From: Armatimonadota bacterium | GTDB taxonomy: Bacteria; Armatimonadota; SYMT01 | Assembly (NCBI GenBank): GCA_041690135.1 | Contig: JAWLHY010000003.1 | Span: 64,001-128,000 of the forward strand | DNA: 64,000 bases | Direction: 5' to 3' | Part shown: one piece after another, positions 7,216 to 21,504 of the stretch | How positions within the stretch are numbered: position 1 is the first letter of the stretch | Layout: each line of letters opens with the position of its first letter | The notes under the pieces: generated by a model | The model's database searches: none | Seen by the model: the letters and a program-made list of their open reading frames with translations, nothing else | Told to the model about the DNA's origin: nothing | Position numbers and translations under genes: made by a program

Positions 7216-9046
7216 TCAAGCGGAGGCATGGCTTCCGCCCCGGGTTAGTCGCCGCGCTTCTCCCGAATGTACCCCCGCCCCGTTGGTCCGCCCAGGTCCG
7301 CAGCCAGGCTCCTCTTCCAAGCTCGTTTCCGCGTTCTGCAGCGAGTACATTCCGGCGTATAACCCTCCTGCCATCAGCAGCTCGGCATGGGTCCCCGCTT
7401 CCGCGATGCGGCCTTCGTCCAGGACCACGATCCGGTCGGCCCACCGCGCCATGGAGAGCCGGTGGGTGATGATCAGGGTAGTCCGGTCCTGCGCCAGGCG
7501 CTGCAGCGCCTGCTGGATCAGCCATTCCGACTCCGGCTCCACCGCGGAGGTCGGCTCGTCTAGGATCAGGATCCGGGGATCGGCAAGGAAGGCGCGGGCG
7601 ATGCAGAGCCGCTGCCGCTGGCCTCCGGAGAGCCGGACGCCGCGCTCGCCGACCTCCGTATTCCAGCCTTCCGGCAGCTCCTCTTCGATGAACCGGAGCG
7701 CGTTCGCCGCCGCCGCCGCGGTACGGGCTTCCTCCAGGGTGGCTTCCGGGCGGGCATACCGTACGTTCTCCAGCACCGTGCCGGTGAAAAGAAACGGCTC
7801 CTGCAGCACCATCCCGATCTGCCGGCGCAGGCTCTGCAGGGTGGCCTCTCGGAGGGCCCGGCCGTCGATCCGCACGCAACCGGCCGTGGGATCCCAGAAC
7901 CGGGGAAGCAGGTTCACGAGTGTGCTCTTGCCGCCGCCGCTGCTCCCCACGATCGCCACGACCTCGCCGGCCGCCACCTCCAGATCGATCTCGCACAATA
8001 CCGGCCGCGAGCCGTAGGCGAAGTGGACCCCCTCGAAGGTCACCCGGCCGGAAAGGCGGGGCAGCTCCACGGCCCCCGGCGCGTCGGCGACTTCGACCGG
8101 CGCATCGAGCACCTCGAAGACCCGGGCCGCCGCCGCGTTGCCCCGCTGGAACAGGTCGTTGACCTGGGCCAGGCCGTACACCGGCTCCAGCAACTCGCCG
8201 GCATAGGCGCGGAACGCCACCAGCCCCCCCCAGCGTGAAGCGGCCCTGGAGAATGAGCCAGGCGCCGGCCGCGATGGAGAGGGTGGTGGTGACGTGCCCC
8301 AGCAACCGGAGCGACGGATAGAAGAGCGACCGCGCGTTCAGCGCCTGCTGCTCCGCTTCCCAGTGCTCGCCCGTCAACCGCCGGAAACGGACCGCCTCCT
8401 GCGGTTCCTGCGCGAACGCCTTCACGACCAGCGTTCCCGCGAGCAGTTCCTGGAGACGGGCGCTCACATGGCCGAGCCTCCCGCGGGTCGTGCGGTACAG
8501 GTCCCGGATCTTCTCGTTGAAACGGCGGACCAGCACCCACACGATCGCCACCGGCGGCACCACGATGGCGGCGAGGAGCGGGTTCAGCAGCATGATACAG
8601 GTTCCAATCACCAGGAAGGCATAGACATTGGCTAGCACCGACTGCGTGATCCGCAGCGCGACCGACTGCAGCAGGTCCACGTCGCCGACGACCCGCGCGA
8701 TCAGGTCTCCGGACCGGTGCTGCTGCAGATAGCCCACGGATTGGCTCTGCAGCTTCCGGTGGACCTCGTTCCGCAGGTCCCGCACGAACGCCAGGGCGAC
8801 GCGCTCCAACAGGTTCTCCCGCAGCGCGTCGAGGGCGGTCCCCAGCAGGTATGTCCCCAGCATCACCGCCGCCGCGCCGGCCAGGCGGTCGGCGCGCCTC
8901 GCCAGCACCACTTCGTCCACCAGGTACCGCCAGATCCACGGGTGGGCCAGGGAAAGCGGCGTCGCCACCGCCATGCACAACAGCCCGAACCCCGCCTGCC
9001 AGCGGTAGGGGCGAAGGTAACCGAGGAGCCGGAGATAGGTCTTCAT
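7216..9046 (-). pseudogene. ABC exporter (TMD+NBD half transporter) split by a +1 frameshift in a G8 tract; pseudogene, phase-variable gene or sequencing error
   Basis: TMD from MKTYLRLLGYL (9046) to FTLGG. NBD with GSSGGGKST, LSGGQRQR and ILDEPT lies in another frame (7216-8220). C8 run at 8224-8231; C7 restores FTLGGLVAFRAY. Confidence 0.85.
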
Positions 9047-9130
9047 CAGAAACCACCTGGGAGTGGGGCCGCGTTGAGGGAGGTCGTACAGCATGGCGGA
9101 TAGCTCTTCTTCCACCGGACAAAAACACGG

Positions 9131-9159
9131 TTGACATCCCTCGGCCCTTATTGCATACT
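9131..9159 (+). promoter_or_regulatory. Sigma70-type promoter for the DUF1559-lasso arm
   Basis: TTGACA (9131-9136), 17 nt spacer, CATACT (9154-9159) in an AT-rich divergent intergenic region. Confidence 0.55.
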
Positions 9160-9171
9160 CATTGCAGTAAG

Positions 9172-9183
9172 TATACACACTGA
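9172..9183 (+). promoter_or_regulatory. Shared motif TATACACACTGA (copy 1)
   Basis: Identical 12-mer on the - strand at 20053-20064; 9-mer at 21032-21040. Confidence 0.55.
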
Positions 9184-9216
9184 ATACGCATCCGGGTGGT
9201 GCAGGTGAGGGGAACG

Positions 9217-10089
9217 ATGTCCGGCCCAGGATCCAAAACTCGAAAGCCAGGGAGAACGCCCGGAGTACCGGGAGCTCACTCGCGACGCCGGCGGGGGTTC
9301 ACCCTCATCGAGTTCCTGGTGGTCATTGCCATCCTGGCAATCCTCGCCGGGCTGCTCTTTCCCGTCTTCGCCCAGGCGCGGGAGGCGGCCCGCAAGGCCA
9401 ACTGCCTCTCCAACCTGAAGCAGATCGGCGCGGCCTGGCTGCTCTACGCGCAGGACCACGACGAAACCATCGTGACCTATAACGGCAGCCAGGTGGGGAA
9501 CGTGCTCTACAGCTGGGACGCCGCCTACGACGTGGCGAACGAGACCTTCGATATCTCGCAGGGGCTGCTCCAGCCGTACATGAAGAATGCCGCCGTGCTG
9601 GATTGCCTCTCCGCCGGCGGCATCGCCGCACAGCGCAGCTATCGGCTGGCGTACGGCATCAATCACCTCTACCTCTATTACCCGCGCTACCCCGCCGCGG
9701 ACTACCTGGGCAAGTACCAGCCGGCCACCCTGGCACAGGTTGAGCGCCCGGCGGACACAGTCATCATGGCCGACTCGGCCAGCCGGGGCATCGCGCCGCA
9801 CAACCTCGGCCAGATCATCCGCACGCGCAACCTGCGGGCTCCGAGCTACGAGGGCACCGTCGGTCCCTCGGCCCACGGCCGTCATGCCGGGTTTGCGGCG
9901 GTCCTATGGGGCGACGGCCACGTCAAGGCGGTCCGGACGACGCCCCGCGCCGCCCATCCGGACGGAGCGGCGATGGCCGAGTGGTACCGCTCGCACCAGA
10001 TCGGCGACCTCCTCCCGCCCGGGTGCGGGCACGACCAGCCGTGCCAGGACTACTACTTCGAGCTGCGCAAGACGACGGCGGGCCGCTGA
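9217..10089 (+). CDS. Prepilin-type N-terminal cleavage/methylation, DUF1559 / H-X9-DG protein
   Basis: [60 protein letters not shown]. Confidence 0.9.
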
Positions 10090-20030: not shown

Positions 20031-20052
20031 GAATACGTATCAAGTCTCTATA

Positions 20053-20064
20053 TCAGTGTGTATA
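20053..20064 (-). promoter_or_regulatory. Shared motif TATACACACTGA (copy 2)
   Basis: Exact reverse complement of 9172-9183, 22 nt upstream of ATG 20030. Confidence 0.55.
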
Positions 20065-20101
20065 AGCGGCGCCGGAGATACGTTGGCGAACCGGACTCCG
20101 C

Positions 20102-20995
20102 TTAACGGCGGAGAACGAGGCCTACCCAGTTTCCATGTGCTTGTTGCTCAACGAGACGGAAGCCCGCGTCCCCGGCGGCCCCGAGAAGCTGCGAGAGCCG
20201 GGCGGAAGTGAACCCGGAAGCCAGCAGAAGCCCTCCCGGCCGTACATTCGCCGCCAGTGCCGGCGCGAGGGAGGTAACCACCGCGGAAGGGAGGTTTACC
20301 AGGGTGACATCGCAGCCGTCGCACTCAACCGGGGAGAGCTCCACCTGTTCCACGTGAACCACTCCCGCCACGCCATTGAGGGCCACGTTCCGGCGCGCAA
20401 CCGTAACCGCCGCCGCGTCCGGATCGATCGCTCGTACCGTGGCGGCGCCGAGAAGCGCTGCCGCAAGGGCGAGGATGCCGGACCCGGTGCCCACGTCGAG
20501 CACCCGGTCTCCGGTCCGAAGCCTTTCCCTCAGCATCTGCAAAAGCAACTGCGTGGTGGGATGGGATCCCGTACCGAACACCTGCTGGGAGGGTAGGACG
20601 CCGGGGTCGAGCCGGATCAGATGTTCGACTTCCGGCACTTCCACGCTGTTAGCGGCAACGATCGCCAGGGATTCTCCGAGCCGGACCGGTGCAAACGTCG
20701 GGGTCCACTCCTCTGCGTAGGCAAAGTCGGTGGCCGAAGGATGGGGTAGCGCCAGGGCGCTGACGGGCTTCCCGGTAACCTGCCGGAGCTGTTCCTGCTG
20801 CTCGTTGGTGAGCGGAAGCAGCGTGACGCGGTCCCGGAGCTCCGGCCGGCCGCCCGCATCCAGGACCCGGGCCAGCAGCAGGGCGGCATGCAACTGCTTT
20901 CGTTCCAATTCCACAAACCGGCGGCGCAGGCCGCCGGCGAGGAAGTAGTTCTCCTCTTGTTCGGGAGTCAGATCGATGCGTACCGGATATCCCAT
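20102..20995 (-). CDS. PrmA-like SAM-dependent methyltransferase with atypical N-terminus
   Basis: FGTGSHPTT, VLDVGTGSGIL, ARRNVALN and GGLLLASG motifs. Confidence 0.8.
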   Translation of the reverse strand: MGYPVRIDLTPEQEENYFLAGGLRRRFVELERKQLHAALLLARVLDAGGRPELRDRVTLLPLTNEQQEQLRQVTGKPVSALALPHPSATDFAYAEEWTPTFAPVRLGESLAIVAANSVEVPEVEHLIRLDPGVLPSQQVFGTGSHPTTQLLLQMLRERLRTGDRVLDVGTGSGILALAAALLGAATVRAIDPDAAAVTVARRNVALNGVAGVVHVEQVELSPVECDGCDVTLVNLPSAVVTSLAPALAANVRPGGLLLASGFTSARLSQLLGAAGDAGFRLVEQQAHGNWVGLVLRR

Positions 20996-21168
20996 GAACT
21001 TCCCCGGGCGTGATCGCAGGGTGTGGATCGGGTGTGTATATCCAGTTTATCGCATCAGTGTTGCAGCATCAAGGGTTTTGCAGTGTTGTTTCAGGAGTGA
21101 GGAGCGCCGGGTCGGTTTTAGTCCCGATGGGCTCGGCCGGGACGAGTATCACCACGGCCCGATGGGAG

Positions 21169-21504
21169 TCAGGAGGCGGTTTGCTCCACGCAGTTGGAGC
21201 AGTCGAGCCAGTTCTCATGCGGCAGCCGGGGAAGCGCCCTGGGTCCTTCGCCGCGTTGGAAGACGGGGCGATAGAGAATATCGCCCTCCGGGTGCGGATC
21301 GCCGCAGGTGTGGCAACTGGTCTGCCGGTCGACGACCACCGGCGTATGGCCGGTCACGATCCAGCCCTCATGCCCCGCATGCGCCGCGAGCGACTCCAGG
21401 GCCGAGCGCACGGTCAGAGATTTGTTGCCCTGGTAGTACTTCTCGGCAAGCCGCTCGAGCAGCCTGACCGTATCGTCGTCGAGCGTGAAGTTGAGCCGCT
21501 GCAT
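21169..21504 (-). CDS. Ribbon-helix-helix (CopG-like) + CxxC/CxxC zinc-binding putative regulator
   Basis: MQRLNFTLDDDTVRLLERLA..NKSLTVRSAL N-terminus; CHTC and CSNC motifs. Confidence 0.7.
   Translation of the reverse strand: MQRLNFTLDDDTVRLLERLAEKYYQGNKSLTVRSALESLAAHAGHEGWIVTGHTPVVVDRQTSCHTCGDPHPEGDILYRPVFQRGEGPRALPRLPHENWLDCSNCVEQTAS

Follow-up and report, generated by a model that had tools for sequence, protein, structure and literature searches.

What does a lasso-peptide gene cluster gain from prepilin-like proteins encoded beside its enzymes? The question is raised by a locus at positions 7216–21504 of a 64,000-nucleotide stretch of DNA (the window) from the genome of an Armatimonadota bacterium (G000; other genomes, fetched loci and database proteins carry the prefixes G, L and P, respectively). 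In each of its two arms, a DUF1559 prepilin-like gene stands directly before genes for peptide biosynthesis. We tentatively propose, at slightly less than an even chance, that the cluster, whose cyclase belongs to a divergent clade, produces a phosphorylated and further-decorated peptide, and that this peptide is recaptured by a conserved DUF1559 pilin-like surface receptor.

The plus-strand arm contains a DUF1559/H-X9-DG prepilin-like gene of the type we call pilA (9217–10089; Pfam and NCBIfam matches), the gene of a lasso cyclase homologue (C; 10121–11968), the gene of a 52-residue precursor with a 24-residue leader and a 28-residue core (12016–12174; core start predicted at 12088), and genes for the RRE of the PqqD family (B1; 12302–12598) and the B2 leader peptidase (12604–13104). 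Two strong hairpins (z −3.4) are located 3′ of the precursor gene at 12175–12260. The minus-strand arm contains a second DUF1559 prepilin-like gene, of the pilB type (15559–16326; Pfam match), followed by genes for an HPrK-like peptide kinase (14569–15540) and an NTP_transf_5 nucleotidyltransferase-like protein (13025–14572), the latter overlapping the 3′ end of the B2 gene by 80 nucleotides. All genes listed in the earlier note, which had been made from the sequence alone, are present at the places and on the strands it gave, and Pfam and NCBIfam confirm their labels except that of the RHH protein. The lasso core on the plus strand, facing a kinase and nucleotidyltransferase on the minus strand, is confirmed in every part, and so is the prepilin gene directly upstream of the enzymes in each arm, with gaps of 31 nucleotides (plus arm) and 18 nucleotides (minus arm; 12 with a TTG start). 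Both pilins, the proposed receptors, have a class III signal, the DUF1559 start and H-X9-DG. An AlphaFold model of pilB has a mean predicted local distance difference test score of 47, which is too low for a fold search, and PDB matches to the pilins cover the pilin helix only.

The genome G000 holds about 110 DUF1559 matches, about one per 85 kb; adjacency alone therefore means little and needed testing. The other three lasso loci of G000 have no adjacent pilin: the nearest is 47–76 kb away for two of them, and in the third a pilin lies 2.5 kb from the RRE gene and 8.5 kb from the cyclase gene. From a phylum sample of 401 genomes, 44 other lasso-peptidase loci were taken, one of which belongs to the clade of the window cyclase, and the remaining 43 served as the control. 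Some pilin occurs within about 10 kb in 13 of the 43, none closer than 937 nucleotides, and the pilin subfamily of the window is near none of them (best score 32 bits). Because of this zero, and of the other G000 loci, the idea that pilins are a general feature of lasso loci was rejected.

The subfamily recurs with cyclases of the clade in four other contexts. Of the at least 150 pilins in genome G196, the one scoring highest against the specific part of both window pilins stands first in the lasso operon (103 bits, with 56 for the next). A contig of 15,164 bp from the same source is listed for pilin P0096 and for cyclase P0004; pilin P0126, cyclase P0103 and precursor P0118 all list a contig of 11,877 bp; and pilin P0100 and cyclase P0003 both list one of 768,934 bp. 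We infer that the members of each of these three sets share a contig. Seven close relatives of the specific region of pilB were found, including P0096 and P0100, and P0126 falls in the cluster of P0098 and is 64% identical to pilB. With the window counted, five of the six clade cyclase contexts on contigs longer than 8 kb have such a pilin. In a pilin tree of 174 tips, pilB groups with P0095–P0098 (support 0.98) and pilA with P0099 and P0100 (0.925); both are within a 41-tip subfamily that includes no other pilin of G000. The two are each other's best paralogue in that genome (52–56%), and a recent duplication in place was rejected because each has closer relatives elsewhere. These sequence comparisons support a real association. 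The expectation that neighbours of the cyclase gene recur with it in other genomes was borne out for the pilin, in one context read as DNA and three taken from contig sizes, and not for the peroxiredoxin encoded farther along the minus arm.

The best NCBIfam match of the window cyclase is the lasso cyclase model NF033535, with 194 bits, below the cut-off of 525. The protein is full length and conserved throughout. Seven close relatives have identities of 35–85%, after which identity drops to about 30%, and the clade, which comprises 11 sequences when loci are included, has a support of 1.0 and a long stem branch of 0.86. An arginine replaces glycine in the ATP loop of all 11 clade members and of none of 249 other cyclases, with the serine and aspartate of the loop retained. 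The aspartate of a second motif is missing from 11 of 11, and is retained in 123 of 138 aligned outsiders (a further 111 outside homologues were unaligned at this position); the other 15 also lack it. We take this aspartate to be essential in McjC; a literature search gave no confirmation of this. The arginine and the lost aspartate may adapt the cyclase site to an acidic, phosphorylated core. Cyclases of the clade are rare, being found in one of 31 genomes of the class of G196 and in G000 alone among eight of its own class. A scan of loci with the single cyclase sequence gave no match, and alignment-based scans found only L071 and L150 within the clade, among the 79 and 80 loci kept. From its sequences, the clade appears to be a rare, divergent Armatimonadota lineage.

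The core of the window precursor contains Asp1, Cys3, Asp9, Thr12, His14 and Asp18-Ser19, and its leader has Val(−2). Searching 1.84 billion representatives with a profile yielded seven matches, four of which were retained; with cluster members, the precursor family has ten sequences of about five independent types. P0116 and P0119 were dropped as long repeat proteins, and P0117 was dropped for its Thr(−2) and a different core. P0119 (382 residues) has repeated segments resembling lasso leaders and is a possible multi-core precursor. All ten aligned precursors keep Val(−2), Asp9, Thr or Ser at position 12, and the Asp-Ser pair; position 3 is occupied only by Cys, His or Glu, and position 14 only by His or Asp. 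Position 1 varies between Asp, Asn, Ala and Ser. The Y(−17)/P(−14)/L(−12)/G(−8) leader motif is recognizable in the window precursor from Tyr(−17), Leu(−12) and Gly(−8); Tyr(−17) and Gly(−8) are invariant or nearly so in the family, and position −14 is Ile in the window and Pro in seven of ten members. Asp9 provides an acceptor within the core 7–9 range. The usual lasso Thr(−2) is replaced by Val throughout; Ile or Val at this position is a published exception, with further Val(−2) precursors listed in supplements to the same paper (PMC10368454). The window core ends in Lys, and a terminal Ser is present in four of the ten. Two precursor types list contigs of the same size as clade cyclases (3788 bp; 2720 and 11,877 bp).

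The RRE (PF05402) and B2 (NF033537; Cys75, His107) score above their cut-offs. The kinase matches TIGR04352 weakly and contains the His-Lys-Asp-Asp motif described in PMC9266682 as His121, P-loop Lys142, Asp159 and Asp160, and the nucleotidyltransferase (PF14907, 71 bits) has DxD residues Asp124 and Asp126. At the sequence level, the genes for the precursor, RRE, B2, cyclase, kinase and nucleotidyltransferase are all intact and keep together, which supports the earlier view of a lasso-type cluster with kinase and nucleotidyltransferase in this little-studied phylum. The three further lasso loci of G000 (C4:139–146 kb, C1:1187–1194 kb and C9:287–297 kb) have ordinary Thr(−2), Gly/Gln-type precursors, and two of them contain kinase and nucleotidyltransferase genes. 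The divergent ABC exporter (ABC_membrane and ABC_tran by Pfam; 7216–9046/9094, minus strand) is present as had been described, and not intact: relative to an intact paralogue on contig C2, one extra G in a run of eight (8224–8231) splits the gene into two frames. The frameshift may stem from the assembly or may be a genuine break in the gene, and the exporter's membership in the lasso system is uncertain. No RNA run was listed, and the sole DNA sequencing run yielded only short scattered pieces, which settled neither the frameshift nor synteny. Genes for an O-methyltransferase and a PEMT-type methyltransferase are located just past the exporter, at 4957–7063.

The sole homologue read as DNA, L071, is 93% identical in DNA to the contig of G196. 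Its genes lie on a single strand in the order pilin, CobW (COG0523), His-rich open reading frame, pilin, unknown, CobW, pilin, an ABC ATPase and a pair of DUF3526 permeases; 17 nucleotides farther on begins the cassette of cyclase, precursor, RRE, B2, kinase and nucleotidyltransferase. The converging layout of the window, presented earlier as characteristic of the island, is a single operon in this homologue. In G196 there is also a gene of the Fur family, and a fragment of a peroxiredoxin lies 1.3 kb away from the cassette. Judged by its genes, the L071 cassette appears to end a zinc-starvation-type operon. Upstream of the operon-heading pilin, at L071:5449–5478, is a long AT-rich palindrome that by eye resembles a Fur/Zur box. 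G355 has the same order of pilin, ABC and DUF3526 genes on a 6.7-kb contig free of lasso genes, with a pilin of another subfamily (90 bits versus 201 for that of G196), which indicates that the pilin type follows the lasso cassette, not the permeases. The DUF3526 ABC-2 trio is present in only five of the 401 genomes (loci include L333:274–4815, L331, L332 and L334), and pilins flank two trios, those of G196 and G355, and not the other three. The L071 context and the ligand-type residues at core positions 3 and 14 suggest a metal cargo; a metal such as zinc is the likeliest, on the evidence of one lineage. This zinc-starvation-type context of the homologue, the altered cyclase motifs and the Val(−2)/Asp1 precursor are missing from the earlier note.

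A candidate sigma-70-type promoter (10 of 12 positions matching) and a palindrome are located at 9131–9170 on the plus strand. The −10 box sits within the 23-bp imperfect palindrome (9148–9170), a candidate operator. A 12-bp word on the plus strand (9172–9183) is repeated at 20053–20064, upstream of the minus arm, and nine of its base pairs recur at 21032–21040, upstream of the PrmA-like gene. Shared words of such length were found in 7 of 3000 random upstream pairs (12-mers) and 2 of 3000 triples (9-mers), the word having been picked after looking. The common word suggests co-regulation of both arms in this genome and is a candidate site of a shared regulator. The window has no Rfam match.

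Based on these comparisons, a pathway can be proposed. By analogy with paeninodin, pseudomycoidin and Bsf, the kinase would phosphorylate the precursor with its leader bound by the RRE. Since the core lacks a C-terminal Ser, the phosphorylated residue is probably either Ser19 or the conserved Thr or Ser at position 12. The NTP_transf_5 protein may cap the phosphate, by analogy with PsmN (PMC6993621), a step made uncertain by LppN, which is described as without activity in its host (PMC13381572). B2 would then cleave after the residue following Val(−2), the cyclase would join Asp1 to Asp9, and the peptide would be exported by an ABC system. The prepilin, processed and displayed by type IV pilus or type II secretion machinery, would bind the peptide and take the place that TonB-dependent receptors hold in other bacteria. 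TonB-dependent receptor matches number one in G000 and none in G196, each of which has more than 100 DUF1559 prepilin-like genes. The receptor step is suggested by the conserved pairing, by this scarcity and by the place of the pilin beside the ABC-2 trio, which resembles that of znuK. A fuller version, in which the product is a phospho-lasso metallophore with Cys/His3, His14, Asp18 and phospho-Thr/Ser as ligands, made by a rewired cyclase and recaptured by the DUF1559 receptor through pilus machinery instead of TonB, is doubtful.

Several findings weigh against the receptor proposal. For three of the four contexts outside the window, the evidence is agreement in contig size, and one of these contigs is 769 kb long. 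None of the listed pilins matches cyclase P0006, whose contig is 8.4 kb long. In the pilin subfamily, 29 of the 41 tips come from other genomes, and 19 of its 20 best loci have no lasso gene within 7.5–20 kb, with L061 as the positive control; only the G196 locus is known to continue into a lasso cassette. The link appears to be one-way in these sequences: the peptide lineage keeps the pilin, and the pilin lineage does not need the peptide. Without the second-motif aspartate, closure of the ring by the cyclase is not assured. The assembly shows the divergent exporter with a frameshift, and L071 contains no counterpart of it. As for zinc control, G000 has no second copy of the palindrome at one mismatch, its sole two-mismatch copy lies inside a coding region, so that no Zur-type regulon can be derived, and it has no close COG0523 or DUF3526 orthologue.

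Some of these findings would suit a pilin that is a co-inherited passenger, having come under one promoter or into one mobile island with the lasso cassette at an early date and been copied along with it, serving another ligand and never contacting the peptide. DUF1559 genes occur at very high density in these genomes, many loci with a pilin of the subfamily are free of lasso genes, and the pilin-ABC-DUF3526 operon of G355 shares its contig with none. We nevertheless regard a passenger as unlikely, though the least unlikely of the alternatives, because the pairing spans different classes and gene orders with cyclases merely 35–49% identical, two distinct pilin types each show it, and the G355 pilin belongs to another subfamily. 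It is less probable still that the pilins export or display the peptide as a pseudopilin adaptor of type II secretion or a type IV pilus. Both keep the class III signal, with a Gly/Phe cleavage site and Glu5, G000 has nine PilB/GspE/PilT-type ATPase motif matches and a prepilin-peptidase-like gene, and the local ABC exporter is frameshifted; on the other side, the positional analogy favours uptake. ABC exporters are also normal in lasso clusters, as PMC6993621 describes them. The coupling to a pilin-like structure put forward earlier holds as an association, and a receptor role appears to fit better than the secretion role, which is possible. The cyclase might also make another linkage or none, leaving a linear or branched phosphopeptide similar to LPP, in which a kinase and an NTP-transferase work without a cyclase (PMC13381572). 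The arginine found only in the clade, the missing aspartate and the variable core position 1 would agree with such a product, which we consider improbable all the same: no precursor of the family departs from Asp9, which occupies an allowed position for the ring, the full-length cyclase is conserved from end to end, and 15 homologues outside the clade lack the same aspartate.

The least probable alternative in our estimation is that the entire 14-kb island is one system. Upstream of pilB, the minus strand encodes a secreted fusion of GHL10-like, thioredoxin-fold and peroxiredoxin domains (16386–18491), a secreted protein of no family (18510–19862; start possibly up to 20030), a PrmA-like methyltransferase (20102–20995; Pfam), which is an extra paralogue with a different N-terminus, and a small RHH-like protein with a Cys/His-rich C-terminus (21169–21504), labelled by eye and with no Pfam or NCBIfam match. 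Gaps of 59 and 18 nucleotides in this arm, the upstream word common to both arms, the peroxiredoxin fragment near the G196 cassette, and the presence in G196 of the best fusion orthologue among the 401 genomes would favour a single system. That orthologue, however, has maf- and mreB-like genes as neighbours on its 4.1-kb contig, none of eight fusion or peroxiredoxin loci has lasso genes, none of nine fusion relatives lists the contig size of a clade cyclase, and L071 has no peroxiredoxin match at the corresponding place. The secreted protein has no relative in five genomes, in a search made without a positive control; its nearest clusters are mostly Armatimonadota hypothetical proteins, with an STN domain as a lead. 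G196 has a single PrmA, and the RHH orthologue in G048 has other neighbours. Neither the exported redox module nor the PrmA and RHH genes were found to be conserved parts of the cluster; the four genes of this stretch are most likely local neighbours, and they may be co-regulated here.

The selenocysteine (Sec) reading of the fusion is well supported. The in-frame TGA (16713–16715) is at the peroxidatic position, where the 688-codon G196 orthologue has TGC and shorter Sec-peroxiredoxins of three other genomes (L265, L266 and L267) have TGA. All eight database relatives of the fusion stop at the TGA residue, and tRNA-Sec and SelA are present. A hairpin forms after the UGA and is no more stable than shuffled sequences (z 0.28). 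An 8-nucleotide word downstream of the TGA is common to the window and these three loci and is a candidate lineage-specific selenocysteine insertion sequence element. GHL10-like/peroxiredoxin genes recur beside secreted proteins (L262:2615–5767, L263:9542–12351 and L061:7857–11349) and, in two genomes, beside a GH113 and GT2 pair, as a separate secreted glycan/redox module. At C2:129767–129874 of G000, the end of another gene is a 92%-identical copy of the last 36 codons of the RHH gene, which looks like a recombination remnant. Farther along the window, at 25911–27263 on the minus strand, an extracytoplasmic function sigma factor is joined through a Tat-like segment to a ThuA-like domain.

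DUF1559 prepilin-like proteins number in the hundreds in Armatimonadota genomes, and no ligand is known for them; PMC9266682 gives the biological role of phospho-lasso peptides as unknown. With one peptide paired to one pilin subfamily, a single binding assay could test both the DUF1559 ligand and the phospho-lasso role. If the metallophore version is true, the locus would give the very large DUF1559 family its first ligand and phospho-lasso peptides their first role; if the pilin is a passenger, a modest new phospho-lasso subfamily remains. The cyclase clade, with its altered ATP-site motifs and cores starting in Asp, Asn, Ala or Ser, should also help in studying how lasso peptides are cyclised and in engineering that reaction.

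The open literature, covered mostly by titles and with subscription papers and supplements outside its scope, yielded no account of lasso genes paired with DUF1559, and none of the listed papers on DUF1559, H-X9-DG or prepilins concerns RiPPs by its title. Like the window, the pseudomycoidin (psm) and paeninodin (pade) clusters encode C, A, B1, B2, an HPrK-type kinase and an ABC exporter, and psm also encodes an NTP-transferase, PsmN, required for hexose addition to the phosphopeptide (PMC6993621, PMC9266682). Their kinases act on a C-terminal Ser, which the window core lacks, and the window differs further in Val(−2), Asp1 and the altered cyclase motifs; the parts of these papers used here mention no pilin partner. 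The Bsf system of Bradymonas sediminis shares a branched aliphatic residue at −2 and a kinase acting on an internal residue, and has a Gly1-Asp8 ring and phospho-Ser3, in contrast to the predicted Asp1-Asp9 ring and the Cys, His or Glu at position 3 here (PMC10368454); the word "Armatimonad" is absent from the main text of that paper. LPP (lppAKBSDN) resembles the window in its kinase, RRE, peptidase, exporter and NTP-transferase, and is described as having internal Ser phosphorylation, no cyclase and an SpI-like peptidase (PMC13381572), whereas the window encodes B2, a cyclase homologue of full length and the invariant Asp9. The cluster would work like a phospho-lasso system of the pseudomycoidin or Bsf type and lacks two expected features, Thr(−2) and the C-terminal Ser. 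In Caulobacter, the receptor znuK lies beside the Zur-repressed znuGHI genes (PMC4176598). L071 has a similar arrangement of an ABC-2 ATPase and two permeases, with CobW nearby and a putative receptor adjoining, and DUF3526 proteins are found in Caulobacter; we infer that these are ZnuH and ZnuI. L071 differs in having a pilin-like protein in place of the TonB receptor and a RiPP cassette after the permeases, and G000 lacks the ABC-2 trio. The window pilins resemble the DUF1559/H-X9-DG family (PF07596, TIGR04294) in their N-terminal methylation motif, DUF1559 start and H-X9-DG; for that family we found no function or globular-domain structure, and one of its subfamilies now has a candidate ligand.

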